Shown here in pieces: positions 6,444 through 23,529 of a DNA stretch of 32,000 nucleotides; the first letter of the stretch is position 1, and each line of letters begins with the position of its first letter. Under the pieces are notes generated by a model. The model made no database searches and was not told the origin of the DNA. It saw nothing but the letters and a program-made list of their open reading frames with translations. The DNA comes from an uncultured Erysipelotrichaceae bacterium (lineage in GTDB: Bacteria; Bacillota_I; Bacilli_A; Erysipelotrichales; Erysipelotrichaceae), in NCBI GenBank assembly GCA_942492995.1, contig OW818653.1, forward strand, positions 1,770,001 to 1,802,000, read 5' to 3'. A program made the position numbers and the translations under genes.

Positions 6444-6447
6444 ATAA

Positions 6448-9400
6448 ATGTTTTCACCAGTTAATGCATCTACTAATATAGTTAATAAGTATTTAAGGTA
6501 TCTGAACACGATATTTCAATTAAACGATGAAGAATATACTAAATTATTTAAAAAGGAACTGAGTAAAGTAGGAAGTTTCTATAAAGGTCCGTATTTGGAT
6601 GTTTCAAATTCATATAAAAAAGAATCTAATATTGAAGAATTAATTTCAATTGGAAAACTGAATAGAAATTTTGCGAGAATTAACATTAATAAGGAACGTC
6701 AATTATATTCACATCAAATAAATGCATTGAACAAAGTAATAATGGGTAAAAATATCGTTGTATCTACAGGTACTGGTTCAGGTAAAACAGAATCTTTCTT
6801 GATTCCTATACTTAATAGTTTAGCTTCAGAGCAAGATAAGAATACATTAGATTCTGGAGTTAGAGCTTTATTAATTTACCCAATGAATGCTTTAGCAAAT
6901 GATCAAATTGATAGATTGAGAGTAGTACTTAAAGATTATCCAGAAATAACATTTGGTTCATATACTGGTCAAACTGAAAATGATGAGAAGAGTGCTCAAA
7001 ATAAATATAACGAATTAAATAAATCAAAACCATTAATTAATGAATTGATTTCTAGAGAGAGGATGCATTTATCTCCACCAAATATATTAATAACTAATTA
7101 TTCAATGCTAGAGTATCTTTTACTAAGGCCTGAATCTTCAGTTTTTTTTAGTAATAAATTTGCAGATAAATGGAAATATATTGTTCTTGATGAAGCGCAT
7201 GTTTATAGTGGATCAACAGGGATAGAGGTTTCTTATCTTTTAAAACGACTAAATACGAGACTTGAAAATCCGAATATACAGTATATTCTAACTAGTGCGA
7301 CATTAGGATCTGAGGAAGAGAACAATGATGTAGCGAGTTTTGCGCAAGACTTATGTTCATCTAAATTTGATGGTGCAGATGTTATAAGAGCTGAGAGAGT
7401 TAATATGCAACCAGAGGGAAATCTCTCCATTTATGACATAGAAACATATTCTATTCTCGCAAGTGATATTGAAACTTCTAGTGAAGAATATGTACTAAAT
7501 TTACTTTCCGAAGTTTATCATGTGAGTTCAGGTAGCTTGAACAATGCACTTTATGATTTTGTTATTAAGGATAAAAATTATTGGTCAATAAAATATTTTC
7601 TTAATGAGCCTAAAACTATTATCGAAATAAGTGAGCATATGAATTGGACGATAAAAGAAGTTGAAGATTTTGTTTATGTTGCTTCAAAAGCTGTAAAAGA
7701 TGAAATAAAACTATTTGATTCTCGATATCATATGTTTTTAAAGTCGACTGAAAGTGTATTTATTACACTTAGTCCTCTAAAGAGAGTGTTTCTTGAAAGA
7801 AAGAAAATACATATCGAAAATAATAGAGAATATAAGGTATTTGAGATATCTACATGTATTTACTGTAGTTCAATATATATACATGGCGAAATTGATTTAG
7901 AAATGAAACTTCAGCAAAAATCACAGTATAATCTTGATACAGATCACCATGTTTTTTTACTTAAGGATAAATACTCAAATGATAACGAAGATAATGAAGG
8001 ATCAGATAATTTATCAGAATATTTACTATGTCCATATTGTGGACATATTGTATCAGAAAAGGATAGAAAAGCTAAATTATGTGAACATTCAAAAAGTGAA
8101 TATGTTAAGGTAATAAAAGTAAAATTAAAAGATTCGAAAAAATTAACAAAATGTTATGTTTGTGAGAATAAGAATAATACAGGTGTTCTAAGAGGTTTTT
8201 ATTCAGGCCATGAAGCAGTTTCAAGTGTCATTTCAAGCGCACTATATGAAGAATTACCTTCAACACTAGTTGAAAATATTAAAAAAACAAATTCTGGTGG
8301 TTTTGGTAAAAGAGTAAATCAGCCAACATTAACATCTTTGGCTAAACAATTTTTAGCATTTTCAGATTCTCGACAAGCTGCAGCATACTTTGCATCATAT
8401 TTTGATACAACATACAAACAATTATTGTTTAGAAGAGTACTTGTTAACATTATTAGTAAAATGGATAAAAATTTCTCTATGGACTTTAAGGAAATAGCAA
8501 ATAAATTAGAACTCTCATTTCTACATGATCTAAATGTGGATAATGCAAAGATGTTGGCTTATCAAACACTTTATAATGAACTCTTTAATATAAATACGAG
8601 TAATTCATTATCAAAAAAAGGATTACTGAATTTCAATTATAATTTGGAATCAAACTATCCAATTCTTGATTTGACAGAAAATGAATTGAACGATTTTTGC
8701 ATGATAATAGCTGAAACAATGATGCAGTCTGGTGCCATAAATGTCGATGGAATGGAAGCCGGTCTCACAGAGAATGATTATGACTTTTTTACTTATTCTT
8801 CAAAGCTTACTGGATTCAAACTTAATATAACAGAACCAAATAATAAAATAATCTCATTTACACCTTCAAAATTGAATGGAATGAATAAAAGATTGGATTA
8901 TGTTATCAGATTAATGAAGAAAAAAGGTATTTATGAGAATGATGAGAAAGCTCTAAGAATTCTTGAAGAAGTTTTTAATGATTTTGAACATGATTTACTA
9001 ATCAGAGATAAAAATAATAGTTCTTTTAGAATAGATCCTAAAATGCTTAATGTTTCAGTAAGAAAGTTATATAAATGTGATAAATGTTATTCATATACAC
9101 ATCATAATATTCAGAAAATTTGTCCTTCATACAAATGCCAAGGTAATTTACATGAAGTTCTACCAGATAAAGAATTTGAAGATGATCATTATTATCAACT
9201 TTACAAAACAATGGAAATAAATTCTATGAGAATAGTTGAGCATACTGCTCAACTTTCAAGTGATAAAGCTTATGCATTTCAGAAAGAATTTGTCGACAAA
9301 AAAATAAATATATTAAGCTGTTCAACAACATTTGAAATGGGTGTTGATGTTGGAACACTTGAAACAGTATTCTTAAGAAATATGCCGCCATCCCCAGCTA

Positions 9401-11355
9401 ACTATTCTCAAAGAGCTGGGCGAGCAGGAAGAAGTAAAAATTCTGCTGCATTTGCATTAACATTCTGTAATAGATCATCACATGATTTTTCCTATTTCAA
9501 TCGTCCAAAAGAAATGATTAAAGGAAAAATTAGACCTCCAAAATTTAAAGTTGATAATGAGAAAATAGCAATACGCCATCTTTATGCAACAGCACTTTCT
9601 AAATTTTGGAGAGAAAACCCCCATTTGTTTAATGATGCTGAGACATTTATGGAAAAGGGAGGTTACTTAGCATTTAGAGATTTTATCTTATCAAAACCTA
9701 ATGACTTAAAGAATGAGTTAAAGACATTATTCTCTGATAGATTAATTGAAGAATTTAAAATTAGTAGTTTTGGATGGGGAGATTTTCTTTATGAGAATGG
9801 GCCATTGAAACAAAGTAAGGAAGAATATGATTACATAATTGATATATTAACAAAATCTAAAGATTTGAAAAGTAACAATAAAAGTATAGATTACAGAATT
9901 AATACAATACACAAAGAAAAAATAATATCATTTTTCTCTAATAGAAATATTCTACCCAAATATGGATTTCCGGTTGATACAGTAGATTTGAAAATTTCAT
10001 TAGACAAGAGTAATCAGGCGACGGGTGTTGAACTTCAACGAGATCTATCAATGGCGATTTCAGAATATGCCCCAGGTTCGCAAGTAGTTGCAAATGGTAA
10101 AATAATTACAAGCAGATACATTTCAATTATTCCAAGTTTAGGTTGGAGGACCTTTGCACACTCATTGTGTACTCACTGTTTGACATTAAATGTTGACGAA
10201 TACAGTACTGATGAAAGCCTTGAAGATATTCTAAATGAATGTAAAGCTTGTAAGGAAAAGTTAACTGAAGATAAGAAGAAAGCTATTATACCAACTTTCG
10301 GGTTTACTTCAGATTTAGATATAAAACCAGCAGGAATAAAAAAACCTGAAAAAACATATAGAACTGACGTATATTATGTTGGGCATCAAAATAATATTGT
10401 ATTTCAAGAGCTAAAAATTGAAGATTCAATTATAAAAATTGGTTATTCTGAGAAAGATAAATTAGCAATGCTAAACCAATCTAATTTCTTCGTATGTGAA
10501 AGATGTGGATACTCAGACGCTTTTAGAAATGTGTTTAACAATTCAATAACTGAAAAACATAAGGATTCTAGAGGTAGATTTTGTGAAAATTCATTTTTAA
10601 AGAAATATACTTTAGGCTATACTTTTGAAACAGATGTTTTACATATTGAATTTGAAAGACCACCTATAGATAGTAGAGAAAAAGGTTTATCAATCTTGTA
10701 TGCACTATTAGAAGGGATATCAAATACATTAAATATTGAGAGGTCTGATATTAATGGTGTTCTGAAACCTGGAGTACTTGATGATTATGGAAATCATAAA
10801 ATATCCTTCGTAATTTTTGATAATACACCTGGAGGTTCAGGCTATGTGAAACAACTTAATAATCAGAAAATCATAAGTCAAGTAATTCAAAGAACATATG
10901 ATTTAATGATTAATTGTTCTTGTGGTGATAAGGAAAAAATGGAAACATCATGTTATGCATGTTTAAGAAATTATTATAATCAAAAACATCATCACATCTT
11001 GCAAAGGGGATATGTTGTAAATTTTCTTGGTGAATTATTGGGAATATTAGATAAATCGAAAGTTCAACAATCTAGTAATAGTCAACTAATAAATAATCAA
11101 TATTTAAGGGACTTTCTGAATTGGATAGAATTAAATAACTATGAAAATCCAATAATCGGTTATGAATTTAATTCGAAAAAATATGCTACAGCTGAATTGG
11201 TTTGGGAAGAAATGAAGTTAGCAGTAATTATTGAACCGCAAATTATTTATGAAGATGTAATCCAAAGTTTAGGGTGGGTAGTAATAAAACTGAATGAATC
11301 AAATATTACTGAAGTTAAGAAGCTATTTAAGGAGAAAATACATGGCCCAAAGTAA
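6448..11355 (+). CDS. DEAD/DEAH-box SF2 helicase fused to DUF1998 (DruE-like; MrfA/YprA/COG1205 class)
   Basis: 1635-aa ORF. Motif I 'STGTGSGKTESF', II 'VLDEAHVY', III 'LTSATL', VI 'YSQRAGRAGR'. Several CxxC zinc-ribbon pairs. C-terminal DUF1998 signature 'FDNTPGGSGYV...CSCGDKEKMETSCYACLRNYYNQKHH'. Confidence 0.8.
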   Translation: MFSPVNASTNIVNKYLRYLNTIFQLNDEEYTKLFKKELSKVGSFYKGPYLDVSNSYKKESNIEELISIGKLNRNFARININKERQLYSHQINALNKVIMGKNIVVSTGTGSGKTESFLIPILNSLASEQDKNTLDSGVRALLIYPMNALANDQIDRLRVVLKDYPEITFGSYTGQTENDEKSAQNKYNELNKSKPLINELISRERMHLSPPNILITNYSMLEYLLLRPESSVFFSNKFADKWKYIVLDEAHVYSGSTGIEVSYLLKRLNTRLENPNIQYILTSATLGSEEENNDVASFAQDLCSSKFDGADVIRAERVNMQPEGNLSIYDIETYSILASDIETSSEEYVLNLLSEVYHVSSGSLNNALYDFVIKDKNYWSIKYFLNEPKTIIEISEHMNWTIKEVEDFVYVASKAVKDEIKLFDSRYHMFLKSTESVFITLSPLKRVFLERKKIHIENNREYKVFEISTCIYCSSIYIHGEIDLEMKLQQKSQYNLDTDHHVFLLKDKYSNDNEDNEGSDNLSEYLLCPYCGHIVSEKDRKAKLCEHSKSEYVKVIKVKLKDSKKLTKCYVCENKNNTGVLRGFYSGHEAVSSVISSALYEELPSTLVENIKKTNSGGFGKRVNQPTLTSLAKQFLAFSDSRQAAAYFASYFDTTYKQLLFRRVLVNIISKMDKNFSMDFKEIANKLELSFLHDLNVDNAKMLAYQTLYNELFNINTSNSLSKKGLLNFNYNLESNYPILDLTENELNDFCMIIAETMMQSGAINVDGMEAGLTENDYDFFTYSSKLTGFKLNITEPNNKIISFTPSKLNGMNKRLDYVIRLMKKKGIYENDEKALRILEEVFNDFEHDLLIRDKNNSSFRIDPKMLNVSVRKLYKCDKCYSYTHHNIQKICPSYKCQGNLHEVLPDKEFEDDHYYQLYKTMEINSMRIVEHTAQLSSDKAYAFQKEFVDKKINILSCSTTFEMGVDVGTLETVFLRNMPPSPANYSQRAGRAGRSKNSAAFALTFCNRSSHDFSYFNRPKEMIKGKIRPPKFKVDNEKIAIRHLYATALSKFWRENPHLFNDAETFMEKGGYLAFRDFILSKPNDLKNELKTLFSDRLIEEFKISSFGWGDFLYENGPLKQSKEEYDYIIDILTKSKDLKSNNKSIDYRINTIHKEKIISFFSNRNILPKYGFPVDTVDLKISLDKSNQATGVELQRDLSMAISEYAPGSQVVANGKIITSRYISIIPSLGWRTFAHSLCTHCLTLNVDEYSTDESLEDILNECKACKEKLTEDKKKAIIPTFGFTSDLDIKPAGIKKPEKTYRTDVYYVGHQNNIVFQELKIEDSIIKIGYSEKDKLAMLNQSNFFVCERCGYSDAFRNVFNNSITEKHKDSRGRFCENSFLKKYTLGYTFETDVLHIEFERPPIDSREKGLSILYALLEGISNTLNIERSDINGVLKPGVLDDYGNHKISFVIFDNTPGGSGYVKQLNNQKIISQVIQRTYDLMINCSCGDKEKMETSCYACLRNYYNQKHHHILQRGYVVNFLGELLGILDKSKVQQSSNSQLINNQYLRDFLNWIELNNYENPIIGYEFNSKKYATAELVWEEMKLAVIIEPQIIYEDVIQSLGWVVIKLNESNITEVKKLFKEKIHGPK

Positions 11356-13402
11356 AATAGATATTAAGATTTCTTTATCTACAAGTTTTCTTGAATCATT
11401 AGAGGATTTACCTAAATCGATACAGAAAAAAACTCGTGAGTTTCTTACGAAATTTCAAGAAAATCCATTAGCTTCGAGCATTAACTATGAAACAATTGCT
11501 AATGCTTCAAACGATGATTTAAGATCAGTTAGAATAGATCAAGCATATAGGGGAATTATTCTTAAACCTAAGTTAGGCAATGTTTATTATTTACTATGGG
11601 TTGCAAAACATGATGATGCATATAATTGGGCATTAACCAAAAGAGTTGATTCAAAAGAAATAATGGGTTCAGAATATATTGACACAAGATTCAAACCTGT
11701 TTCTTTGAATGAAGAGAAGAAAACATTATTAAAACAAACTTCAATTGTAGATTTAGTAAAACTGGGCATTCCCTTAGAGTTAATTGATTCGATAAGAGAC
11801 GTAAATGACATAAATGAACTTGAAATTTATAGAAACACTCTTAATATTAAAGTGTATTTAAAACTGCAATATTATTTAAGTGGTTATAACCTTGATAAAT
11901 TGGATGATTTAGTTGATTTAGAAGATAATAAAGAAAATCCTTTTATAATGATTGAGGATTTATCAGACTCAGAACTAATAAAATTGATAAATAGTCCAAT
12001 TAATAAGTGGAGATTATTTTTACATCCCTCACAATTAAATCTTTCAAATAGAAATTTTAGTGGTTCGGCAAAAGTGATTGGTCCAGCTGGAACAGGAAAA
12101 ACTGTAGTTGCAATTCATAGAGTTAAACATTTATATAAAAATTTAAAATCAAATGAAAAAATCCTTCTAACAACATTTACTAAAACTCTATCAGAAGATC
12201 TCAAAACGAAAATTTCAGAGATATTACCAAGTTATTCAACTAATTTAGAAGTTATTAATCTTGATAATTTAGTAATGCAATATTTTACAAGAGAAAGATT
12301 AAATCTCACGGTAGTAGATGATACTAGTGATATTTGGAGTAAAGCGATAAATTATTTTGATTTTAAATCTAAATATAGTACGGAATTTATCAAAGACGAA
12401 TGGGAAATGATTATTTTGTCGAATAATATCGATAAATTAGATGAGTATTTAATTGTGCCTAGAGAGTATAGATCGAAAAAAATTGATCGAGCCTCAAGAT
12501 TAGAAATATGGAACATTATTGAAAAATATAAAAATGACATGGAAAATAAAGGGGTTGTTGACTATGAATGGGCAAAACTAGAAGCTATTAAACATTTAAA
12601 TAGAAAACATCCCGACGGCATTTATAGACACGTTATTTTAGATGAAGCACAAGATATGAGTGCTTTATCATTTAAATTAGTGAGAGCATTGGCTGGTACA
12701 GATAAAACTAATGATATATTTATTGTTGGAGATTCTAGGCAAAGAATTTATAAAAATAGAACAACACTGAAATCTTGTGGAATAAGAGTATCAGGTAATT
12801 CATATAGTCTAAATATAAATTATAGAACCACTGACTCTATATATGAATTTGCGACTAATATTATTAAAGATATAGAATTTGATGATTTAGATGGTGAAAT
12901 AATAAATATAGAAGATGCTCAAAGTGTTGTAATAGGGAACACTCCAATTGTTAAAGAGTTTGAAAATTATGATGATGAAATAGATTTCATATCAAATCTC
13001 ACTGAACAATTAGAATATAATATTATGAAAAATGAAATCTGTATTTGCTTGAGAACAAACGAACTAGTGAATAAATATGCCGATTCTCTAAATAAAAAAG
13101 GAGTTAAGATTCTAAAGCTATCGATTAACCAAGCTGAAAATCAACATTTAGATGGTGTTAGAATTACTACAATGCATAGAACAAAAGGATTAGAATTCTC
13201 ACATATAATAATTGCTGGGTTAAATGATGATATTATGCCTTTAGATACATTGTTAAAAAATGTCAACAACGACCAAGATATAACAAAAATATTTCAAACT
13301 GAGAAATCACTATTATATGTTGCAATGACAAGAGCAAGATATTCGTTAACTATTACTTCAAGTAAGAAATTAAGTTCATTTATAAGGAATTATAAAAACT
13401 AG
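11342..13402 (+). CDS. UvrD/Rep-like SF1A helicase with RelE/ParE-like N-terminal domain
   Basis: Preferred start is ATG 11342 (GGAG at 11331-11334), not the ORF-track 11294; it overlaps the upstream stop by 14 nt. Motifs 'VIGPAGTGKTVVAIHR', 'VILDEAQDMS', 'IVGDSRQRIY', 'INYRTT', 'TTMHRTKGLEFSHIII', 'LLYVAMTRARYSL'. N-terminal ~105 aa: 'FLESLEDLPKSIQKK...NP...LRSVRIDQAYRGIIL...VYYLLWVAKHDDAY'. Confidence 0.85.
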   Translation: MAQSKIDIKISLSTSFLESLEDLPKSIQKKTREFLTKFQENPLASSINYETIANASNDDLRSVRIDQAYRGIILKPKLGNVYYLLWVAKHDDAYNWALTKRVDSKEIMGSEYIDTRFKPVSLNEEKKTLLKQTSIVDLVKLGIPLELIDSIRDVNDINELEIYRNTLNIKVYLKLQYYLSGYNLDKLDDLVDLEDNKENPFIMIEDLSDSELIKLINSPINKWRLFLHPSQLNLSNRNFSGSAKVIGPAGTGKTVVAIHRVKHLYKNLKSNEKILLTTFTKTLSEDLKTKISEILPSYSTNLEVINLDNLVMQYFTRERLNLTVVDDTSDIWSKAINYFDFKSKYSTEFIKDEWEMIILSNNIDKLDEYLIVPREYRSKKIDRASRLEIWNIIEKYKNDMENKGVVDYEWAKLEAIKHLNRKHPDGIYRHVILDEAQDMSALSFKLVRALAGTDKTNDIFIVGDSRQRIYKNRTTLKSCGIRVSGNSYSLNINYRTTDSIYEFATNIIKDIEFDDLDGEIINIEDAQSVVIGNTPIVKEFENYDDEIDFISNLTEQLEYNIMKNEICICLRTNELVNKYADSLNKKGVKILKLSINQAENQHLDGVRITTMHRTKGLEFSHIIIAGLNDDIMPLDTLLKNVNNDQDITKIFQTEKSLLYVAMTRARYSLTITSSKKLSSFIRNYKN

Positions 13403-13435
13403 AATTTTACGACAATAACAATATATAATAAGAAT

Positions 13436-13762
13436 ATGAAAATCTATAATAAGCTTATTAGAGACCATATTCCTGAGATAATTACTAAAGATGGGAAAAC
13501 AGCAGATATTATAATTCTGTCAGAAGAATCGTTTAAACAAGCCATTAAAGATAAACTAATCGAAGAAGCAACTGAAGTAGCTAATGCACAAAATAGAGAT
13601 GATATCTTAAGTGAATTAGCAGATCTACAGGAAGTCATGGAAAGTATCAAGCAGATCTATAATATTAATACATTAGAAGTTAATACCATTCAAGCAGTCA
13701 AAGCTTTACAACGAGGTAAGTTTGATAAGAAGATATTCTTGAAGTCAGTGAATGAAAAATAA
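13436..13762 (+). CDS. Small all-alpha MazG/HisE-like nucleoside triphosphate pyrophosphohydrolase
   Basis: 108-aa ORF. N-terminus 'YNKLIRDHIPEII' plus acidic helix motifs 'LIEEATEV' and 'ELADLQEV', typical of the house-cleaning NTP-PPase (PRA-PH-like) family. RBS is weak. Confidence 0.65.
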   Translation: MKIYNKLIRDHIPEIITKDGKTADIIILSEESFKQAIKDKLIEEATEVANAQNRDDILSELADLQEVMESIKQIYNINTLEVNTIQAVKALQRGKFDKKIFLKSVNEK

Positions 13763-13781
13763 TTAATAAAAGGGGAATTGG

Positions 13782-14744
13782 GTGGACGATTACTTTAAAG
13801 AATGGTTAACCGTAATTGACGGTATGAACAATGAAAATACCTATAAATTAGCATGGGGTAGAGCCATTATAGAACTCTGTCATTCTTTTGATGTGATTGA
13901 AGGAAGCACTACAGTTTTTACATTTGAACAAATAGGAGAATACGTCTTGAAGTACTTTTGGAACCAGACGTATTTTTTTAAGCTTTATCAAGGACCAGCA
14001 AAATCTAAGCCTAAGATACAACAGATTACTGAACAGGTCATTGATTATTATCAAACACAAGCAAATACAAGAATACCTGTCTGGTTTGATTTAGGGAAAC
14101 CAATATTAACAAAAGATACCATCAAATATAAACGATTCTTAAAAGATATAAGTACTGCACTTAAACAAGATGTTTGTTGGAGATTCACAAAAGTAGGCGA
14201 AGAAAATATCGATTTATATATATTAGATAAAGATAGAAGAATTATAGAACTTTCATCTCATCAACATACAATCTTGAAGGAACATGCCTTCGTATTATCG
14301 CAACTATTAAATTATCGTTGGGCACAACTTCTAGAGAAGTTTAATCAAAGTCCTAGAATCGCTTTAAAAGTAAAAGGTTCAACAGATGAAAAAATTAGAA
14401 GGAATAGTTTAACTAAGTTCAAACTTGCATTATTAAAACAGTTCCCAGATGGAATAGTGAGAGACTTCTATACAGATGAAGTATTAGATTCAAATGATAT
14501 TAGTATTGATCATGTTATCCCTTGGTCATTCATGTATAGTGATGATATTTGGAATCTGGTAATAACATCAAAATCAAAGAACTCAAGCAAGAGTAATAGT
14601 GTTGTGAAAGAAGAATATATAAATAAGTTAAAAGATAGGAATATTGAATTAATTAAGTATACTGATGAAAATTGTAGATTGGAATTATTAGAAGCTATTG
14701 AGAATAATTTAATAGATAAGAGTTACTATCAGTTTAAAATGTAA
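13782..14744 (+). CDS. HNH endonuclease with ~230-aa uncharacterised N-terminal domain
   Basis: 320-aa ORF with GTG start and AGGGG RBS (13771-13775). C-terminal His-Me finger 'DISIDHVIPWSF...DIWNLVITSKSKNSSKSN'. N-terminal region ('NTYKLAWGRAIIELC') is unassigned. Confidence 0.8.
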   Translation: MDDYFKEWLTVIDGMNNENTYKLAWGRAIIELCHSFDVIEGSTTVFTFEQIGEYVLKYFWNQTYFFKLYQGPAKSKPKIQQITEQVIDYYQTQANTRIPVWFDLGKPILTKDTIKYKRFLKDISTALKQDVCWRFTKVGEENIDLYILDKDRRIIELSSHQHTILKEHAFVLSQLLNYRWAQLLEKFNQSPRIALKVKGSTDEKIRRNSLTKFKLALLKQFPDGIVRDFYTDEVLDSNDISIDHVIPWSFMYSDDIWNLVITSKSKNSSKSNSVVKEEYINKLKDRNIELIKYTDENCRLELLEAIENNLIDKSYYQFKM

Positions 14745-14757
14745 AAGGAGAAACAAA

Positions 14758-16554
14758 ATGTATATTATAAATGAAGAAATTAATAAGATTAAGGAGAATT
14801 ATAAGAAAGAATTTGGAATAAATATATCTGATGAAAGAGCATTTACTGCAATGATTTCATACATCTATTTTTATTATGATAAAGACTTTAGAGAGAATAT
14901 TTATTCAATTAGTGATTCAATAGTAGATGGCTCTTCCGATGGGGGAATTGATATAGTGTATTTTGATGATGAGCAAATGAAAGTAATAATTGTTCAAACT
15001 AAATTTACTGAAAGTGTAGATAACAACACAGTAATTTCTGAATTAAATAAAATGAATGCGACAGTTAGGAATTTTGAAGAAGGAAATTATAGTACTTATA
15101 ATAAAGCTTTAAAAGTTCAATTAACGAACGCATTAAATAGACAAAATGATGAGGACAAAGGAAATGTTGAATATTGGTTTGTTACTACATCCACACTGGA
15201 CGAAATAAGTGTCTATAGAAAAATAGAAAATGATATTAGAGAATACAATCCAGATATGGTAATTTTAAAACAAAACAATGACATCATTAGCAGAATAAAT
15301 AGTTTACGTGATGATTTTAATTATGTTAAGTTTGATAAAATCGATTATGATAAAGACTCTGGTGTTTTAAACTACGAAAGTAATGAAAACAAAGGTATTA
15401 TCGTAAATATAAGTTCTAAATCATTAAAAGATCTTTTCAATGCACATCAGGACAAAGGACTATTCGATTTAAATATTAGAAGATATATTGCAAATAAAGC
15501 AATAGATAGTGGTATATTAAAAACAATAAAGGACACACCGGATGATTTCTGGTTCTTAAATAATGGAATTACTATTGCGTGTCGGTATTTTGAAATTGAT
15601 GGTAATAAAATAAAACTTCATGACTTTTCTATAGTAAATGGTGGACAAACGACAAAATTGATTGGAGACTCTAAATTTACAAAAGTTCCGTTTCTAGTAA
15701 CTTGTAAGATTATTTCTGATAGTAATGGAGAAGATATAAATAGTGATTTTTATACCAGAGTTGCAGAAGCGACAAATTCTCAGAAACCAATATTACCAAG
15801 AGATTTAAAAGCGAATAGAAGAGAAATGAGATCATTAAAAAATTTATTAAATCTTGAAAAAATAAATCTCGAAATAAAAAGAGGTGAAAAGTCGACAAAG
15901 ACTCATTTCAAAATTAAGAATGATGAACTTGGACAATTAATTCTATCGTTCGTCAATCAAAGACCTGGTACAGCTAGATCAGGTAAAAAACTTATATTTG
16001 ATAATAATAGTTTATATAATACTATTTTTAACATAAACTATGAGAAAGAACCTAAAAAGACATTTCTACTAGACTTAATTGATTTTTATAGAAGAATAGA
16101 CTTTATTACTGATAGTTTAATCAAAAATAAATCAAGCAAAACAATATCGTTGGATCAAAAAAATATTTTAAAAAACGGGAAACAAATTATAATTGCACTT
16201 TTTGGTTTAATGTACAGACTATCTTTAGATGATACATATTCTAAAAAGCTCTATGAGGATTTAAGTAAATTACATACTGATGAATTTGAATATAAGCCAA
16301 TATTTAGTAAATATAATTTGGATGATCTAGATGAAAACATACTTGAGCTATTAATATTTTGCGTTGAGATTTTAGAGGAATCATGGGAACGTGTAAAAGA
16401 AAGAGAAACTAGTATTAGTAATTTCTTTAAAACTGATAAAAAATATATTGATACTATAGTAAAAACATTTTTATCGATCTATAATTCGAAATTCGGGAAA
16501 GTTAGAATTGAAGAACCTTTAAGAATCTATAAAGGTATTGATTGTGGAAATTAG
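14758..16554 (+). CDS. AIPR-family (abortive infection phage resistance) protein with N-terminal Mrr-like PD-(D/E)xK motif
   Basis: 598-aa ORF with AAGGAG RBS (14745-14750). N-terminus 'DGSSDGGIDIVYFDD...VIIVQTKF' (D...QxK, Mrr-like). Central 'FWFLNNGITIAC...IVNGGQTT' matches the AIPR domain pattern as I recall it. Confidence 0.75.
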   Translation: MYIINEEINKIKENYKKEFGINISDERAFTAMISYIYFYYDKDFRENIYSISDSIVDGSSDGGIDIVYFDDEQMKVIIVQTKFTESVDNNTVISELNKMNATVRNFEEGNYSTYNKALKVQLTNALNRQNDEDKGNVEYWFVTTSTLDEISVYRKIENDIREYNPDMVILKQNNDIISRINSLRDDFNYVKFDKIDYDKDSGVLNYESNENKGIIVNISSKSLKDLFNAHQDKGLFDLNIRRYIANKAIDSGILKTIKDTPDDFWFLNNGITIACRYFEIDGNKIKLHDFSIVNGGQTTKLIGDSKFTKVPFLVTCKIISDSNGEDINSDFYTRVAEATNSQKPILPRDLKANRREMRSLKNLLNLEKINLEIKRGEKSTKTHFKIKNDELGQLILSFVNQRPGTARSGKKLIFDNNSLYNTIFNINYEKEPKKTFLLDLIDFYRRIDFITDSLIKNKSSKTISLDQKNILKNGKQIIIALFGLMYRLSLDDTYSKKLYEDLSKLHTDEFEYKPIFSKYNLDDLDENILELLIFCVEILEESWERVKERETSISNFFKTDKKYIDTIVKTFLSIYNSKFGKVRIEEPLRIYKGIDCGN

Positions 16555-16939
16555 GAAATTGATTGTTGTTGCGGCAATTATTGTTGAAGATAATAAATAT
16601 CTAATTGGTTTAAGATCTACTGGCAGATTTGTTAATCTATGGGAATTCCCTGGTGGAAAAGTAGAAGAGAATGAAAATCATAAAAACGCTTTAATTAGAG
16701 AAATCAAAGAAGAATTTAATGTCAAAATAGAAGTAAAAGATCTAATAAAAAAGATAGAACATCAATATCCTGATTTCTATCTTGAAATGTATTGTTATGA
16801 ATGCAAATTATTAACTGATGATTTTATATTAAATGATCATAGCGAAATAATGTGGTTTGATCCAAAGAATCCAGTTGAGCTAAATTGGCTTCCTGCAGAT
16901 GTAGCAATTGTTGAGTATCTAATTGCTAATTCGATTTAG
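16544..16939 (+). CDS. MutT-type Nudix (deoxy)nucleoside triphosphate pyrophosphohydrolase
   Basis: Nudix box 'GGKVEENENHKNALIREIKEEFNV' preceded by 'VVAAIIVED...LWEFPGG'. There is no ATG start: the ORF track uses TTG 16538, and I prefer GTG 16544 (AAAGG 8 nt upstream). It overlaps the AIPR stop (16554) by 11-17 nt. Confidence 0.85.
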   Translation: MEIRKLIVVAAIIVEDNKYLIGLRSTGRFVNLWEFPGGKVEENENHKNALIREIKEEFNVKIEVKDLIKKIEHQYPDFYLEMYCYECKLLTDDFILNDHSEIMWFDPKNPVELNWLPADVAIVEYLIANSI

Positions 16940-19760
16940 TATTTGTTATAAACTCATTTAGAAGTTTTTCTGGTAATGTTTCTCTGAACTTGAATAAAAA
17001 TCTAATTGGTTTGTTAAATTCATATTTATAAGTATCTACTAATCCAAGATATATAAAAGGTTGAACTAATCCGTCAATCTTTTTAAATTTACGAACAAAC
17101 ATGTGTAAATTTATATTTTTTTCTCTATTCTGGATGAGGTTGATGCCAATCTTCGAATTTTGACTAGTTTTATTTTGAGATTCCCATTGTATATAATATT
17201 GATCTATAATTTTATCTTTGTAGTTTATAGATTCCTTTATTGTTTCATCTTTATTTAGATCAACGTAAATGAAGTAATCGTTTTTATTAGTGATTAAACC
17301 TTGACCTCGATATGCAGCTGTTTTTCTATAGTCATTAGATAAAGTTGCAGCATCCATCATTGTGTAAGTTTGATAAAGTTTAAAGAATGGTAATTGGTAA
17401 TCTGGAAAGTTAAACTCTCTAGAAAATCGAGTCAAACCAAAACGAATTGTATCGCTTAACATTTTCATGTTTTTATCTGTTAACAGTGAGGTCCAATTTT
17501 CGTGTCTTGTTATAATCTGTGATTTTTCATCATATTTTATTAAATGAGTAAAGTTTTTAAGTTGTTGAGAATCTTTAAATTGACCTAAAAGACTATTTAT
17601 AGCATGAAGTAAAGATTCTGAACTAATGTTATTAACGAAAGTAGAAATTTCAGATTTCATTAATTCGAATGTAATTGATTCATTATGAATTAATTGATCA
17701 ATTATTGCATATTCATGTGGTCTCCTAATTGGTAATTCAGAAGACACTTGTGCTAAAACTTTCAAAAATTGATTGGTTAGATCATAGTCGTTTAAATCAA
17801 TATCTTTCTCTATTTTACAAATAAATTCGATATATGTTTTTGAATGATTTATGAACTTAATTGGATCAGGACTTCCTTCAAGTAGTTCGTATTCCATTAA
17901 GTAAAATGGGATTTTATAATTATTTATTTTCTTAAATAGTAGGTATTCATCTTTGAGATATTTCATCGAGTTAAAGTTTTCAAATTCTAATTGTTTTAGT
18001 ATTTGTTCTCTTGCAATCTCATTCATTTGGACAAAAGATGTTCCTGGTAACCCTTTAAAGTTATTTTTAACAGTTACTTTGAGACTATCTTTGTCTAAAT
18101 AATTCGAACCATTAAGTGCTATTGCTATTAAGAAACTCTTTTTATAATTGCCAATAAAATCTAATACAGTTACATACTCTTTATCTTTATATTTTCTTAA
18201 TCCGCGGCCTAATTGTTGAATGAAAATAATTGGTGAGCTTGTTGGTCGCAACATTAGAACTGTGTTTATGCTAGGTATGTCTATACCTTCATTAAATATA
18301 TCTACTGTAAATAATACTTTTATTGAATCATATGATTCAGATTCTATTTCATTAATATACTGCTTACGTATTTCAACTGAATCAGATCCACTTAAGAATT
18401 TGCTTTTTATACCACGTTTATTAAATTCTTCCGCCATATATTCTGCATGTTTTAAACTTGCACAAAAACCAAGTGCTTTTAATTTCTTACCATCATGCCC
18501 ATAGAAGTTTAATTTTTCTAGAACATACTCTACTCGATTATTGACACTCAACATAGTACCAATCGTTTCTGAGTCATTTAAATCAATTTTCTCAAGATCT
18601 ATACCTTCTACTTCTGTTATACCAAAGTAATGGAACGGACAAACCAAATCATTTTCGATAGCCTCATGAAGTCGAATTTCTAAAGCAACATTATTATTAA
18701 AATAATTAAATAATGCAAAACCATCAGTTCTTTCTGGAGTTGCAGTCATACCTAAAATAAAGTTAGGGTTAAAATAGTTCATAACCCTTTGATATGATTC
18801 AGAAACGGCATGATGAGATTCATCTAATATAATGTAATCGAAATCATTTGGATTAAACTTACTGAAGTGCAAATTCATGCTATTAATTGTAGAAAATAGA
18901 TACTTTCTATTATATTCCTTGCTGGTTCCGCTTAATACACCAATATCAATCTTACTACCAAGAACTCTTTTAAATGATTCAACAGCTTTTAATAATATAT
19001 CTTCTCTATGTACTAGAAATAATAAACGTTTTGGATTATAGTTCTGAACATCAAAGGCAGACATATATGTTTTTCCTGTTGCAGTTGCAGCAATGACTAA
19101 TCCTCTATTTTCTCCACGACTGCGTAGATTCTTTAAACTTTGCATTGCTCTTAATTGCATCGAATTTGGTCGTACAGTTTCTTCTCGATATATGAAAGAT
19201 TCTTCGTTTCTCTTAAAATCTTTTAAGTTCTCTATAAAGTTCTCGTACTCAATTAGAAACCGTTCATCTAAAGATTGAGTTTTGTTCCATAATTCATTAA
19301 ATTGATTAAAAATATCGATGACAAAAGGGTTTTCCTTTTTAGAAATAATTTTTACATTCCATTCTATATTCTTTAATAATGCATTAGAAGTAATGTTGGA
19401 TGACCCAACATAAAGTTGATAATTGTCTTCATACTCAAAAATGTATGCCTTTGTATGGAATCCACCAAAAACATGTTGAAGATAGATCTTAGTTTCAATA
19501 TTTTCGAATTCAGTTAATTTTCTAATCGCTTTTGGTTCAGTAAAATTCAAATAATCTGATGTTATTACTTTGCCTTCTATTCCTTTTTCATTAGCTTCAT
19601 TCAATGTCTTTAAAAGAAGTTGTAGTCCACTATAGTTGATGAAGGCGACACTAAAAATAAAACTTTTACAGTTTTTTAATGAATTGTTTATTTCGTCAAA
19701 CATATTAGAATTAAGATTATTCGAAATTAGACTTAATGATTGTTGCTCAAAGTTATTCAT
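16926..19760 (-). CDS. SauUSI-like type IV modification-dependent restriction enzyme (PLD nuclease + SF2 ResIII helicase + DUF3427-type C-terminus)
   Basis: HKD motif 'GGFHTKAYIF...YVGSSNITSNAL'. Helicase motifs 'VIAATATGKTYMS', 'IILDESHHA', 'GMTATPER', 'QQLGRGLRK'. A ~330-aa C-terminal region and a total length of ~945 aa match the SauUSI architecture. The second ATG (19760, GGGG RBS) is preferred over 19772. Confidence 0.75.
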   Translation of the reverse strand: MNNFEQQSLSLISNNLNSNMFDEINNSLKNCKSFIFSVAFINYSGLQLLLKTLNEANEKGIEGKVITSDYLNFTEPKAIRKLTEFENIETKIYLQHVFGGFHTKAYIFEYEDNYQLYVGSSNITSNALLKNIEWNVKIISKKENPFVIDIFNQFNELWNKTQSLDERFLIEYENFIENLKDFKRNEESFIYREETVRPNSMQLRAMQSLKNLRSRGENRGLVIAATATGKTYMSAFDVQNYNPKRLLFLVHREDILLKAVESFKRVLGSKIDIGVLSGTSKEYNRKYLFSTINSMNLHFSKFNPNDFDYIILDESHHAVSESYQRVMNYFNPNFILGMTATPERTDGFALFNYFNNNVALEIRLHEAIENDLVCPFHYFGITEVEGIDLEKIDLNDSETIGTMLSVNNRVEYVLEKLNFYGHDGKKLKALGFCASLKHAEYMAEEFNKRGIKSKFLSGSDSVEIRKQYINEIESESYDSIKVLFTVDIFNEGIDIPSINTVLMLRPTSSPIIFIQQLGRGLRKYKDKEYVTVLDFIGNYKKSFLIAIALNGSNYLDKDSLKVTVKNNFKGLPGTSFVQMNEIAREQILKQLEFENFNSMKYLKDEYLLFKKINNYKIPFYLMEYELLEGSPDPIKFINHSKTYIEFICKIEKDIDLNDYDLTNQFLKVLAQVSSELPIRRPHEYAIIDQLIHNESITFELMKSEISTFVNNISSESLLHAINSLLGQFKDSQQLKNFTHLIKYDEKSQIITRHENWTSLLTDKNMKMLSDTIRFGLTRFSREFNFPDYQLPFFKLYQTYTMMDAATLSNDYRKTAAYRGQGLITNKNDYFIYVDLNKDETIKESINYKDKIIDQYYIQWESQNKTSQNSKIGINLIQNREKNINLHMFVRKFKKIDGLVQPFIYLGLVDTYKYEFNKPIRFLFKFRETLPEKLLNEFITNTKSN

Positions 19761-19854
19761 ATAACCCCACATTGAATGAAAACTACATTAAACAAATTTT
19801 AACATTTAAAGTTGCTGATAGATATTAATTATTTTTTCATAAATTTATTCACAT

Positions 19855-19883
19855 TTACATATTTCCATATTTAAAGCTATAAT
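19855..19883 (+). promoter_or_regulatory. Candidate sigma-A promoter for the 195-aa/SF1B-helicase operon
   Basis: TTACAT (19855-19860), 17-nt spacer, TATAAT (19878-19883). The ORF-track ATG at 19882 lies inside this -10 box. Confidence 0.45.
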
Positions 19884-19905
19884 GTACATACAAATACGGG
19901 GGATT

Positions 19906-20493
19906 ATGTCTGATTCTATAAAGAATAATCAAGATCATCAAGTTGCGATAAATCTTGTAAATGACCTAATTGAAGGAAAGAATCCAATCACGAAATCCAA
20001 GTTTGATATGGATACAATTTTTAGTTCGCCTGAAATAGCAAGAGCTCTTTTCTATATAAGAAATATTCTAAACAATGACTCGAATTCTGCTTCATCATTA
20101 GTAGAAACTGTAGTTAATAAGTCTAAAAGAAAAACTGAGAAATTAAGAATTAGATTCGACAAGATTGATTTTGAAGAAATTGATTTTAGTGATTTTAATT
20201 ATGAAGAGAATACAGGTATTATAAAATTATCTAAAACTATTACTAAGTTTGTAAATGATAAACAGATATTGTTCGATGTAGAAGCAAAAGACTTAATAAG
20301 CTGGTTAGAGAATGAAGGATATCTTATAACAGAAAGTCTTGATTCAAAAAAGCATATTCCAAGTCCGTTAGGTGAAGCATTAGGAATAGTGTTTAAAGAT
20401 GTTGAAATAAAAGGAAGAATGGTTAAAATGAGCATTTATAGTCGATATGCTCAACAATTCATTATCGAACATTTAAAGGATATATATCTATAA
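19906..20493 (+). CDS. Hypothetical protein (195 aa) coupled to the downstream helicase
   Basis: ATG 19906 follows GGGGG (19898-19902, short 3-nt spacer). The stop TAA 20491-20493 abuts the next ATG (20494). No motif recognised. Confidence 0.55.
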   Translation: MSDSIKNNQDHQVAINLVNDLIEGKNPITKSKFDMDTIFSSPEIARALFYIRNILNNDSNSASSLVETVVNKSKRKTEKLRIRFDKIDFEEIDFSDFNYEENTGIIKLSKTITKFVNDKQILFDVEAKDLISWLENEGYLITESLDSKKHIPSPLGEALGIVFKDVEIKGRMVKMSIYSRYAQQFIIEHLKDIYL

Positions 20494-23400
20494 ATGATAA
20501 ATGCAGTGGCAATAGAGATAACTAAGTCTATCTATGAAGGTAAATGGTTATCGATTCGATATCATAATAAAAATGAAGAAGAAACTTATTTTTGGTGTGG
20601 AATAAAAGATATTGATACTGAAAAAAGAATGATACTTGCAGATGTTTATAATATCGGTAAAGAAGGATTTAAATCCGATTTTAAAATGTATATTGACTCA
20701 ATCATACAGGCAAATGTAGTAGAAGGAACATTCTACGGAAAACAAGAAGCTTTGATTGAAAAAATGAAAAACAATGTGGAAGACTTTTTGTTTCTTGAGC
20801 TAAGATCATTAGATGATAGAGTTTTAAATTATTACTTGGAATGTTATGCCAATGATGAAGAGCCTTATCAGAATGAATATGCTTTAGTTAAAGGATTAGA
20901 TCTAAATATATTCAAATCTAATATTGTAGATTTATCAGATCGTGATTTCGATCAAATTGTTATTATTCTTAATAAGCAACTCAAATTGAAAGTTGATCCT
21001 AAAACATCATTAGTTGTAAAGTTAGTTATAAATTATCTTTCAATTTACCAAGGCGACGATAAAATAATCCCTTTAGTTTACTATAATACTAAATTGGATA
21101 TTGAGAATAAACGTTTAGTTGTAGACGATAAGCCAACAATAAATAAAAACCAGATATCGGATGGTAAGCAACAAGCTTATATAACAAACTATATCGATGT
21201 TGATTATAAATTTTTCAAAGAGAATTTTTTGAAGTTCGAAGAAGAGTTTACGGAACAAGTTAGAAAAAATCTTGGACCACATGAAAAACTCGATCAAATG
21301 CCATACATATTCAAGTTTTCATTACGCTACAATACTTCATTAAGATCAGAATTTGAACAGATAGAATCAAAGTATAAAGCAAATAAATTGAACAAACCTT
21401 TGAGTTCATTTTTTGGACTTATTGAGAAAGATACGAAGAGGACCAAAGTTCGACCTTTACTAATTGAGAACTCAAATATAAACGTAAATCAGTTAAGAGC
21501 TGTATATAATGCAATAAATCGAAATGTTGTATTTATTCAAGGCCCACCTGGAACTGGAAAGACTGTATCAATTGTAAATATGGTACACACTTGTCTATTT
21601 AACAACGAATCTACTTTGATAACATCAAACAATAATGAAGCTATTAATAACATTGTTAATAAATTAAATAATCTATCCTATAATAATATTCCTATTCGTT
21701 ATCCATTTTTACGTTTAGGATCTGACGAAAATATCCAAATGACACTGAGAAACTTAAGAGATTATCTTAAGTATTTTGAACTTATTGAATTTTCAGATGT
21801 TGATAAAGAGCGTTTATTTGACTTAGAGTATGATGTTAACGAAAGTATGAAATATGTAAATGAAATACTTGAAAAATACGAAACTCGATTAGAGTTAGAA
21901 CAAAAAATCGATGGATTGAAAAACTTTATTAAACTTATTGAAGAAGATAGTGAAATGGACGAATTTACAAAAGTAGGTAATATAATAGATTTTGAAGCTC
22001 AAATATTAAGACACAGCGAAAAACTCAAACAAACTATTAATAAAGAAGAACTAGAAAATCTGAAGTTAGATTCTTCAAATAGTCATGAGATTATTTACTA
22101 CCTTTCAATAGAATATGGGAAAAAGTTGTTCGATGACAAGTATTCACAACTAAGGGAGATCCTCAATAAACAAAATGAAGAGGATAGATTGAAAGAATTT
22201 AAAAACTATATTCTAAGCGATGATGGAATGAAACGTCTTTTAGAGTGTTTTCCAATAATATTATCAACCAATATTTCCTCAACAAAGTTAGGGTCTTCAA
22301 ATTCAAACTTTGACTTATTAATTATGGAAGAAGCTTCACAATGTGGAAGTGCTGTTTCTCTAATTCCGATGACAAGATGCAAACGTGCTTGTTTTATTGG
22401 CGACCAAAATCAACTACAACCAGTAATAACGCTTACTGATGAACTAAATACTAAGTTTAAGAATACATATAATATTCCAGATTCGTTTGATTACAAGCAA
22501 AACTCAATATTAACTACATTGCTTAAAATCGATACTGCATCTAAATTTATCATGTTAGAGAAGCATTATAGATGTCCAAAAAAAGTCATAAATTTCGCAA
22601 ATAAGAAGTATTATAAAAATTTACTAGATATTGAAAATTTGATGAATGATGACGCTTCATTAAAACTTATTGATATTCAAAATACATCCTCTTATGAACC
22701 TAATACTTCTGGTGCAGAAATATCGGCTATTCTAGAAGAACTCAGAACATTACCTAAGAATGAAGAAGTAGCGATTATTACACCATTCAAAAAACAGGCA
22801 AGGTTGATCGAAAGTGTTTTATTTGAAAAAGGTATAGAAAATATAAAGGTTGGTACAATCCATACATTCCAAGGACAAGAAAAAGATCACATTATAGTAA
22901 GTACAGCAATAACTGGAAAGACAAAACAAGGTTCTTTTGATTGGATAAAGAACAATAAAGAGTTAATAAATGTTATGACCACAAGACCTAAAAAGAAACT
23001 TACAATTATCGCGGACGTTCAAGCAATAGATAGATTAAGTCAAGGTGAAATGAATGATTATTTTGAGTTGATTAATTATATGGCTTTAAAAGGAGATTCA
23101 GAAATTATTGAAGTTGAGGAAGATATTTTTAGTTCAAGAGTTAATGGGTATAGAAACTTTACTACAAAGAGTGAAAGAGAGCTACTTAAAACAGTTCAAC
23201 ACTTTAGATCAACCAACCAAAAGTTTGGTATAAGGTTAAAACCTAAGATTTCTGATTTATTGGAATTGCTACCTGAAGAAAAATATTTATTTAATTATGC
23301 TAATTCAGCACACTTTGATTTAGTTTTAACAGATAATCAAGATAGACCTCTAATGGCAATCGAAGTATGCGGTCCTGAACACTATGAAGATCCTATTGTC

Positions 23401-23529
23401 ATAGCACGAGACAAAAAGAAAGCAGAAATCTGTGCTTTAAGAAATCTGCATTTAGTTATTATACCTAATGAAAATGTTAGAAAATATAATGAAATTAGAC
23501 AGATAATTATAGATACTTTGAAGAATTGA
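20494..23529 (+). CDS. Upf1/DNA2-like SF1B helicase (AAA_11/AAA_12 type) with C-terminal DUF2726/DUF559-like restriction-endonuclease-fold domain
   Basis: 1011-aa ORF. Motifs 'FIQGPPGTGKTVSIVN', 'LLIMEEASQC', 'FIGDQNQLQPV', 'LEKHYRCPKKVINFAN', 'VGTIHTFQGQEKDHIIVS', 'NVMTTRPKKKLTIIAD'. C-terminus 'AHFDLVLTD...PLMAIEVCGPEH...ARDKKK'. The N-terminal ~330 aa are unassigned. Confidence 0.8.
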   Translation: MINAVAIEITKSIYEGKWLSIRYHNKNEEETYFWCGIKDIDTEKRMILADVYNIGKEGFKSDFKMYIDSIIQANVVEGTFYGKQEALIEKMKNNVEDFLFLELRSLDDRVLNYYLECYANDEEPYQNEYALVKGLDLNIFKSNIVDLSDRDFDQIVIILNKQLKLKVDPKTSLVVKLVINYLSIYQGDDKIIPLVYYNTKLDIENKRLVVDDKPTINKNQISDGKQQAYITNYIDVDYKFFKENFLKFEEEFTEQVRKNLGPHEKLDQMPYIFKFSLRYNTSLRSEFEQIESKYKANKLNKPLSSFFGLIEKDTKRTKVRPLLIENSNINVNQLRAVYNAINRNVVFIQGPPGTGKTVSIVNMVHTCLFNNESTLITSNNNEAINNIVNKLNNLSYNNIPIRYPFLRLGSDENIQMTLRNLRDYLKYFELIEFSDVDKERLFDLEYDVNESMKYVNEILEKYETRLELEQKIDGLKNFIKLIEEDSEMDEFTKVGNIIDFEAQILRHSEKLKQTINKEELENLKLDSSNSHEIIYYLSIEYGKKLFDDKYSQLREILNKQNEEDRLKEFKNYILSDDGMKRLLECFPIILSTNISSTKLGSSNSNFDLLIMEEASQCGSAVSLIPMTRCKRACFIGDQNQLQPVITLTDELNTKFKNTYNIPDSFDYKQNSILTTLLKIDTASKFIMLEKHYRCPKKVINFANKKYYKNLLDIENLMNDDASLKLIDIQNTSSYEPNTSGAEISAILEELRTLPKNEEVAIITPFKKQARLIESVLFEKGIENIKVGTIHTFQGQEKDHIIVSTAITGKTKQGSFDWIKNNKELINVMTTRPKKKLTIIADVQAIDRLSQGEMNDYFELINYMALKGDSEIIEVEEDIFSSRVNGYRNFTTKSERELLKTVQHFRSTNQKFGIRLKPKISDLLELLPEEKYLFNYANSAHFDLVLTDNQDRPLMAIEVCGPEHYEDPIVIARDKKKAEICALRNLHLVIIPNENVRKYNEIRQIIIDTLKN

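Follow-up and report, generated by a model that had tools for sequence, protein, structure and literature searches.

The window analysed here, a stretch of 32,000 nucleotides from an uncultured Erysipelotrichaceae bacterium (contig OW818653.1), contains a variable defence island of ~26 kb (3681-29105) in which genes for a MazG-like pyrophosphatase, an HNH nuclease, an AIPR/AbiU-like protein and a Nudix hydrolase follow one another closely on the forward strand. A previous sequence-only reading had taken these four genes for a single undescribed module. Comparison with other genomes makes it highly probable that they belong, instead, to three separately inherited units which abut in the island and all lie within it. 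The first unit comprises the gene for a MazG-like all-alpha nucleoside triphosphate (NTP) pyrophosphatase of 108 amino acids (aa; 13436-13762, + strand) and that for an HNH nuclease of 320 aa (13782-14744, + strand); the second, an AIPR/AbiU-like protein of 598 aa, encoded alone (14758-16554, + strand); and the third, a Nudix hydrolase of the NudG/MutT clade with 133 aa (16538-16939, + strand) as the partner of a SauUSI-like type IV restriction enzyme of 948 aa (16926-19772, - strand). Unit 1 (13436-14744) is a conserved two-gene cassette, apparently undescribed so far, and its context points to a role in defence. Unit 3, as judged by sequence, is a Nudix gene with a convergent SauUSI-like enzyme, a linkage already published. 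The best explanation overall, for which a probability of about 0.6 is estimated, joins this three-unit anatomy with small pyrophosphatases that would clean the nucleotide pool.

Borders of the three units

The boundaries of the units, as well as the pairwise linkages within them, can be read directly from other genomes. In two close relatives of the window, the loci L067 and L068, the HNH protein is 87% and 82% identical to that of the window, respectively, and the MazG and HNH genes have been kept at ~82-84% DNA identity (84% for the HNH gene of L067). The DNA common to L067 and the window comprises the blocks 13424-13769 (MazG), 13769-14767 (HNH) and 16548-19729, the last one holding the Nudix and type IV genes as a single conserved stretch. 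In L067, a bPH_1 gene occupies the slot of AIPR, and a gene for a PvuRts1I-like SRA nuclease (8765-10963 of that locus; PADLOC mREase_II, 1.6e-56) has been inserted exactly between MazG and HNH, giving a three-gene array with gaps of 4 and 11 nucleotides (nt). In L068, the DNA shared with the window is confined to 13435-14746 and to the right border of the island (29239-29452), the other island content being different; AIPR, Nudix and the type IV gene are missing, and an unrelated five-gene SNF2/ParB_N set follows the HNH gene. The synteny blocks of both loci thus break off precisely where one of the three units gives way to the next.

A scan anchored on the HNH protein, with one genome taken per species, provided 66 loci, whose hosts are mostly Erysipelotrichaceae, together with relatives of Acholeplasma/Anaeroplasma, Clostridia and a few others. 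A MazG gene of the window type stands directly beside HNH and on the same strand in 23 of these loci (upstream in 22, downstream in L049), often overlapping it, and does so in addition to L067 and L068. AIPR neighbours HNH in one locus out of the 66 (L035), and a Nudix gene lies within 10 kb in four, in each of them beside a type IV homologue and not beside HNH or AIPR. The scan anchored on AIPR covered 80 metagenome loci with homologues of 33-48% identity, at least 600 nt being available upstream in 59 and downstream in 56. Neither a Nudix nor a SauUSI-like gene was found in these 80 loci, and an HNH gene only in L103 and L104, which have one neighbouring gene in common, where it is convergent and, in the locus where it was read (L104), C-terminally truncated. 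Finally, the Nudix gene was followed through 11 independent contexts, namely six looked-up homologues (48-61% identity) plus L014, L021, L026, L050 and L067, and it adjoins a gene with the phospholipase D (PLD)-helicase-DUF3427 architecture in 10 of them. Five of the six looked-up homologues do so in convergent or co-directional arrangement (L150, L151, L152-154, L163/164 and L165), two archaeal ones among them; in the exception (L161/162) the Nudix gene adjoins a NOV_C gene, and a gene for a DEAD/ResIII helicase lies ~1.8 kb off.

The sequence-only reading had itself named a lack of conserved linkage in other genomes as the result that would speak against a module, and had turned to the neighbourhoods of AIPR (PF10592) homologues for co-occurrence. 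Around AIPR no such co-occurrence exists apart from the HNH genes of L103 and L104, and the four families are unlinked as a set in the HNH loci, the AIPR loci and the Nudix contexts alike, so that the single four-gene module has to be abandoned on its own terms. The tie between pyrophosphatase and nuclease survives in pairs (MazG with HNH, Nudix with the type IV enzyme) and not across the four genes. In fact, that MazG, HNH, AIPR and Nudix form one cooperating defence system is very improbable: the tight spacing on one strand, the overlap between AIPR and Nudix, the lack of a predicted terminator and the renewed adjacency of HNH and AIPR in L035 could be cited in its favour, but the four genes occur together nowhere outside the source genome in any of the three samples, L067 exchanges AIPR for bPH_1, L068 lacks all the genes of units 2 and 3, the Nudix gene keeps to a type IV gene on the opposite strand, and the close spacing also reaches the DruE-like and UvrD-like genes upstream.

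The four open reading frames (ORFs), their domains and their co-directional order were borne out by ORF calls, Pfam, PADLOC and NCBIfam. As for the distances of 19, 13 and -11 nt given for them, the first two are right (MazG/HNH and HNH/AIPR), and the last is an overlap of 17 nt from the TTG start at 16538, becoming 11 nt only from a GTG start at 16544, which the 131-aa form of the Nudix protein in the database suggests. At its other end, the Nudix gene overlaps the convergent type IV gene by 14 nt at the stop codons. The tight co-directional block is real, but it is not specific to four genes, since seven are packed on the + strand between 3681 and 16939, with successive gaps or overlaps of 4, -62, 33, 19, 13 and -17 nt; consequently, spacing alone is uninformative as to where a module starts or ends. 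No terminator-like site was predicted from 11000 to 20600, and the scan for promoters and terminators, which returned fewer promoter-like sites than shuffled sequences did, is uninformative at the guanine plus cytosine (GC) content of the island, ~27%. This entails a warning for annotation: tight co-directional spacing in a defence island is not evidence of a system at the operon level.

The proteins and the surrounding island

The MazG-like protein is, by its sequence, a member of the all-alpha NTP pyrophosphatase (NTP-PPase) superfamily which belongs to no named family. It scores just under the cutoff of Pfam PRA-PH (19.7 vs 21.3 bits) and under that of hisE TIGR03188 (19.6 vs 42.7 bits), and a family profile of 19 homologues reaches HisE/PRA-PH structures in the PDB at E ~1e-3. 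Residues E43, E44, E47, E60, D63 and E66, which make up the acidic metal-binding motifs EExxE...ExxD, are invariant in these homologues; no PADLOC model was matched. The protein appears to resemble the COG4997 family. Relatives of this NTP-PPase also occur near cysteine desulfurase genes on a Priestia plasmid (L157) and a Leptolyngbya plasmid (L160), the desulfurase neighbour in the latter being a 387-aa HNH protein, 33% identical to residues 140-283 of the window HNH protein.

The HNH protein is composed of an N-terminal domain of ~190 aa and a Cas9-type HNH_4 domain (E 2e-11). The latter aligns with the catalytic region of the Cas9 HNH domain and has its motif intact, the catalytic residues D243, H244, N258 and N267 being invariant in 65 homologues; over these 65 sequences the mean column identity is 57%. 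The family has 697 homologues, of ~320 aa, and the AlphaFold model of the window protein has a predicted local distance difference test (pLDDT) score of 84. In PADLOC, only HNH domains of Cas9 were matched, while residues 1-200 match no Pfam, NCBIfam or PADLOC model and no reader domain for modified DNA (SRA, SBD, MrcB_N) was recognised in them. The N-terminal domain is also found in fusions, with the McrB-like DNA-binding domain MrcB_N and with the methylase-associated MTaX1 (proteins P0422 and P0419); furthermore, it is the sole domain recognised in several proteins of 650-1800 aa. The family had no match in 50,697 phage records or in the IMG/VR viral contigs. On the pool-cleaning reading set out below, the HNH protein would be a restriction-type nuclease, possibly modification-dependent.

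An adjoining partner on the same strand, often overlapping, accompanies HNH in 59 of the 66 loci, a few of which have two, and several of the seven partnerless loci are interrupted by contig ends. Besides the window-type MazG, the place is taken by a PF12643/DCTPP1-like MazG in ~8 loci, its best PDB match being dCTP pyrophosphatase 1 (2e-13), by a HIT hydrolase (PF01230) in 6, and by a class-I S-adenosylmethionine (SAM) methyltransferase of ~190 aa, directly downstream, in ~27. The partner type tracks the HNH phylogeny, and the methyltransferase (Methyltransf_11/25; best PDB match the uncharacterised protein RPA2492) overlaps the 3' end of HNH across one whole clade, which includes L014, L021 and L026. 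A function as DNA methylase was discarded for this enzyme, no (D/N/S)PP(Y/F/W) motif having been seen by inspection (of L026 only) and its best matches being small-molecule or protein methyltransferases. A conserved third gene after HNH and the methyltransferase was also discarded, the following genes being heterogeneous, as was membership of the UvrD-like helicase (11294-13402) in unit 1, given that it does not precede MazG in L067 or L068 and that just one HNH locus contains it.

The 95 nearest neighbours of the cassette match 218 PADLOC families from many unrelated systems, among them Mokosh, PARIS, AbiO, AbiL, Hhe, Gabija, Menshen, Nhi, Dpd, methyl-directed nucleases and several PDC candidates. 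Genes for modification-dependent nucleases near it are of the PvuRts1I-like (L067), DpnI_C-T5orf172 (L033, L040, L041), DUF262/HEC-06-like (L001) and SauUSI-like (several loci) types. In L033 (~9636-11562), L040 and L041, the HIT hydrolase and HNH genes are followed by one for a 194-aa protein that combines DpnI_C, a winged helix reading methyl-adenine, with the GIY-YIG-like T5orf172. The proposal that the whole region is directed against phages with modified DNA is thereby plausible in part, the SauUSI-like, PvuRts1I-like and DpnI_C-bearing neighbours and the DCTPP1-like partner of HNH all being in line with it.

The cassette is widespread: it was found in Erysipelotrichales, in Acholeplasmatales and among the Clostridia, and divergent forms occur on plasmids of Paenibacillus and the Bacillus cereus group. 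The Paenibacillus plasmid has the pyrophosphatase/HNH pair in reversed gene order, and the B. cereus-group megaplasmids carry a divergent pair whose 350-aa HNH protein shares the HNH core only (pairwise E 4e-6), together with a tentative common N-terminal N..TYK motif (pairwise E 0.03). The pyrophosphatase/HNH cassette is not a PADLOC system, and no description of a MazG+HNH system was found in the literature searched, which does not prove that there is none. The cassette, its unmatched N-terminal domain and the interchangeability of its partners may therefore be what is new here.

Unit 2 appears from its sequence to be a swappable, solitary abortive-infection protein of the AIPR/AbiU type, a new member of a known family. 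AIPR PF10592 is matched with 111.1 bits against a gathering cutoff of 25, and PADLOC AbiU (PDLC02357) with E 4.6e-31, residues 8-431 covering positions 6-436 of the 537 in the profile and the C-terminal part being left uncovered. The flanking genes in the 80 loci are heterogeneous, as expected of a single-gene Abi protein. Residues D61, G63, D65, Q80 and K82 do not vary among 42 homologues, and in the AlphaFold model (pLDDT 84) D65 lies before the first strand (66-70), with Q80 and K82 on the second (75-82). D61/D65...Q80-x-K82 could plausibly form a PD-(D/E)xK nuclease site; the reading is not proven, since the model retrieves only weak fold matches from the PDB (E of at least 0.1), where several PD-(D/E)xK nucleases (HamA, EcoO109I, Can2, NucS and cap-snatching endonucleases) rank near the top, mixed with unrelated folds. 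A place for the protein in an MZA system was rejected (MzaE NF041935, 23.6 bits vs 1050), no other MZA gene being recognised in scans of the window. In one AIPR locus (L142, 7622-7924), a MazG-like tblastn match of 40% identity that holds no ORF lies just upstream of AIPR and is probably a decayed remnant.

In unit 3, the Nudix protein matches NUDIX and NUDIX_4 with 54 and 57 bits, and its sole PADLOC match, PDC-S07 (2.8e-43), is full-length (residues 7-130 on positions 6-130 of 135). The scores for MutT TIGR00586 (68.9 bits, cutoff 97.9) and NudG PRK10546 (77.5 bits, cutoff 156) are below the cutoffs. The best PDB match is a chain named MutT (5x1x, 4.9e-24), and chains deposited as CTP pyrophosphohydrolases (1.9e-20 and 1.3e-15) rank above the classic MutT entry, 1mut (5.4e-10). 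The convergent neighbour had been read as a type IV enzyme and is one by its predicted domains (PLDc_2 at 47-162, ResIII/Helicase_C at 201-526 and DUF3427 at 680-941) and its match to PADLOC mREase_IV (1.4e-156, residues 14-911). A conserved MutT/Nudix gene beside sauUSI was reported by Xu et al. in 2011 from at least 60 such pairs, its function being left for study (PMC3141236). In S. aureus, a strain deleted for this Nudix gene lacked the transformability that marks the sauUSI mutant, no phage challenge being included (Monk et al. 2012, PMC3312211), a result which fits an accessory role.

Further genes adjoin this pair in some contexts. In L150 (2977-8221), PF12643 MazG-like and SLFN-g3 helicase genes lie directly upstream of the Nudix/type IV pair and beside DarT-NADAR, a further pairing with a small pyrophosphatase within a defence island. 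On the Methanobrevibacter-like contigs L152-L154 (1184-4945), the pair is directly preceded by a DUF2357/PDDEXK_7 (McrC-like) gene and this, in turn, by a 623-aa ORF for which no Pfam match is recorded; if the 623-aa/PDDEXK_7 pair is McrBC-like, two modification-dependent systems stand there side by side.

The island is flanked by PRD/PTS genes on one side (974-3246) and by a two-component system on the other (29459-31581). Upstream of unit 1, all on the + strand, it carries a 920-aa ORF that matches nothing in Pfam, NCBIfam or PADLOC (3681-6443), a DruE-like helicase (6448-11355; PADLOC DruE, 1e-170) and the UvrD-like helicase (11294-13402), which has an unannotated N-terminus of ~240 aa and shares 62 nt with the DruE-like gene; the stretch 3681-13402 may represent a variant of Druantia whose partners are non-standard. 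Downstream of unit 3, a 203-aa ORF with no matches is followed by a 1011-aa superfamily 1 (SF1) helicase with DUF2726, MkoA/MkoC- and PDC-S37-like (19882-23529). Homologues of this helicase adjoin HNH cassettes in L001 and L063, and a protein with the same domains adjoins the Nudix/type IV pair in L151. The - strand genes at 23530-29105 encode a 243-aa ORF with no matches, a 1212-aa DpdF-like DEAD helicase (PADLOC 4.6e-73), with relatives downstream of the HIT-HNH cassettes in L033 and L041, and a 362-aa ORF with no matches. The assignment of the region as a defence island is supported.

Possible roles of the small enzymes

The function proposed for the small enzymes is tentative: each pyrophosphatase would act as a narrow cleaner of the nucleotide pool in the service of its own nuclease. 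Type IV restriction lacks a cognate methylase, and the avoidance of self-cleavage is usually put down to the absence of the modification. The pyrophosphatase would remove non-canonical ribo- or deoxyribonucleoside triphosphates ((d)NTPs) before their incorporation, such as 5-substituted dCTP in the case of the Nudix enzyme, and host DNA would in this way be kept free of the mark attacked by the partner nuclease; in addition, pool cleaning might starve phages that build modified DNA. Narrow house-cleaning enzymes, and not bulk depleters of dNTPs, are indicated by their single-domain build, the intact catalytic motifs and the lack of a sensor domain, as well as by the affinity of the Nudix protein for CTP pyrophosphohydrolases and by the DCTPP1-like partner of HNH. 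Moreover, the interchange of unrelated hydrolase folds beside the HNH family suggests that a nucleotide-hydrolysing activity is needed there. According to a citation in PMC3744803, NudG hydrolyses 5-methyl-dCTP.

A wider form of the same proposal is more doubtful. Small hydrolases of non-canonical nucleotides, unrelated in fold (Nudix, HIT and two branches of MazG), and perhaps the methyltransferase, would be dedicated partners of nucleases against modified DNA, conferring self-immunity by cleaning of the precursor pool, and the ~320-aa HNH family would be a widespread undescribed restriction family whose N-terminal domain reads some mark on the DNA. That this mark is phosphorothioate is speculative. 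Enzymes of the HIT family of the HINT1 type act on nucleoside 5'-thiophosphates (PMC8775712), and the cysteine desulfurase genes mentioned above stand near related genes on two plasmids; the idea is kept as a lead only, since the N-terminal domain resembles no solved structure.

Several observations weigh against the explanation favoured here. The N-terminal domain of HNH has no PDB match by sequence profile or by fold, and no relative of established function was detected for it. The MazG-like and Nudix proteins both fall below the cutoffs of all named equivalogs, and the window-type NTP-PPase is also found with no HNH neighbour, for instance on Priestia plasmids. Hydrolytic cleaning of the pool leaves unexplained the most frequent of the alternative partners, a generic methyltransferase of the small-molecule/protein type. 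Furthermore, HNH and AIPR recur as neighbours (in L035 and, convergently, in L103/L104), albeit rarely, and co-transcription and functional synergy between the units are possible in view of the tight packing of seven genes and the lack of a predicted terminator.

Given the same anatomy, the pyrophosphatases could also be offensive, destroying the modified dNTPs of phages (hydroxymethyl-dCTP, hydroxymethyl-dUTP) or depleting dNTPs altogether, with the nuclease cutting modified DNA. The genomic data are equally compatible with this alternative, which is nevertheless considered rather unlikely. Manipulation of the dNTP pool has precedent as a defence (dCTP deaminase, dGTPase), and both the DCTPP1-like and the NudG-like affinities would suit it. 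Two published results can likewise be counted on its side: in rare PUA-HAD systems, MazG-like domains replace the dNTP-depleting Calcineurin-CE effector (bioRxiv 10.64898/2026.01.15.699771), and DefensePredictor assigns a predicted role in defence to MazG domains (PMC13092281). However, with enzymes of 108-133 aa that have no sensor or regulatory domain, a broad depletion of dNTPs would be constitutively toxic; the Nudix deletion in S. aureus, assayed with no phage challenge, did not reproduce the transformable phenotype of the sauUSI mutant; and the methyltransferase partners are left unaccounted for.

As regards unit 1, the partner enzyme might instead remove or modify a nucleotide-like ligand that controls HNH through the N-terminal domain, behaving as an antitoxin-like protein or as a signal eraser until infection takes place. 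Four chemically different partners in one position would be better explained by a shared small-molecule target than by a shared dNTP, coupled expression is suggested by start codons that overlap stop codons, and the N-terminal domain is strongly conserved and is reused with other modules. On the contrary, no ligand-binding or sensor fold was recognised in that domain, no conserved signal-generating gene lies nearby, the third genes being heterogeneous, and DNA, not a small ligand, is what the fusions to MrcB_N and MTaX1 suggest. Ligand control is accordingly deemed unlikely.

Much less can be said for ordinary housekeeping MutT/MazG genes that merely stand beside solitary nucleases. Both proteins do belong to house-cleaning superfamilies, and the window-type NTP-PPase is met on some plasmids with no nuclease as neighbour; but type IV enzymes accompany the Nudix gene in bacterial and archaeal genomes alike and in several orientations, the Nudix protein matches the defence candidate PDC-S07 over the full length and scores under the MutT and NudG equivalog cutoffs, and MazG and HNH, which often overlap, are one inherited block in a variable island, so that this explanation has scarcely any credit. 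Least probable of all is that the MazG/HNH pair is selfish and mobile, for instance a homing-type HNH enzyme with a passenger gene, because, even if HNH nucleases are common among homing enzymes and the cassette resides in variable DNA, phage genomes and viral contigs gave no matches, the genes are free-standing with no interrupted host gene in the loci read, the sequences are well conserved from order to order, partner types go with HNH clades and the neighbours are defence genes.

Comparison with known systems

The system closest to unit 3 is SauUSI of S. aureus, which has the same PLD, superfamily 2 (SF2) helicase and DUF3427 domains as the window enzyme and, likewise, a small abutting Nudix gene. 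In S. aureus this gene lies upstream on the same strand, whereas the window pair is convergent with overlapping stops; moreover, SauUSI cleaves DNA containing 5-methylcytosine or 5-hydroxymethylcytosine in an ATP-dependent manner, and the window homologue is likened to it by domain architecture. PDC-S07 is listed in PADLOC as a single-gene candidate, while the window data and the 2011 paper indicate an accessory gene of SauUSI-like enzymes.

Unit 2 can be compared with AbiU of Lactococcus and the AIPR family (PF10592), since it shares the domain and the AbiU match (residues 8-431) and stands alone as single-gene Abi proteins do. It is, however, a distant relative, the match extending to position 436 of the 537 in the AbiU model.

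The small enzymes recall NudG/Orf135 and DCTPP1/RS21-C6, given the CTP-pyrophosphohydrolase matches of the window Nudix protein, the DCTPP1 match of the PF12643 partners and the intact catalytic motifs. Nevertheless, the MazG-like protein of the window lies on a different branch, nearest to HisE, none of these proteins reaches an equivalog cutoff, and NudG and DCTPP1 are housekeeping enzymes with no genomic coupling to a nuclease. With the defensive dCTP deaminase, dGTPase and PUA-Calcineurin-CE-HAD the common point is an enzyme of the (d)NTP pool located in a defence island; the window enzymes differ in being non-homologous to them, in having no sensor domain and in being paired with a DNA nuclease.

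McrA and ScoMcrA are modification-dependent type IV enzymes of the HNH type. The window HNH protein is similar to them in its reader-like N-terminal region followed by a C-terminal HNH domain, in its residence in a defence island and in its modification-dependent neighbours, and differs in that its N-terminal domain is unlike the solved structures and its HNH domain is of the Cas9 (HNH_4) type. To our knowledge, an obligatory small enzyme partner is not a described feature of McrA or ScoMcrA. The stretch 13436-14744 offers a compact, two-gene candidate defence cassette, and one domain of its nuclease is without structural precedent. Since 2011, the Nudix gene beside SauUSI has stood unexplained, and an unrelated family of HNH nucleases now displays the same pairing with small hydrolases, whose folds interchange. 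This recurrence points to a general rule, by which the cleaning of the nucleotide pool would be an accessory function of defence nucleases that target DNA.

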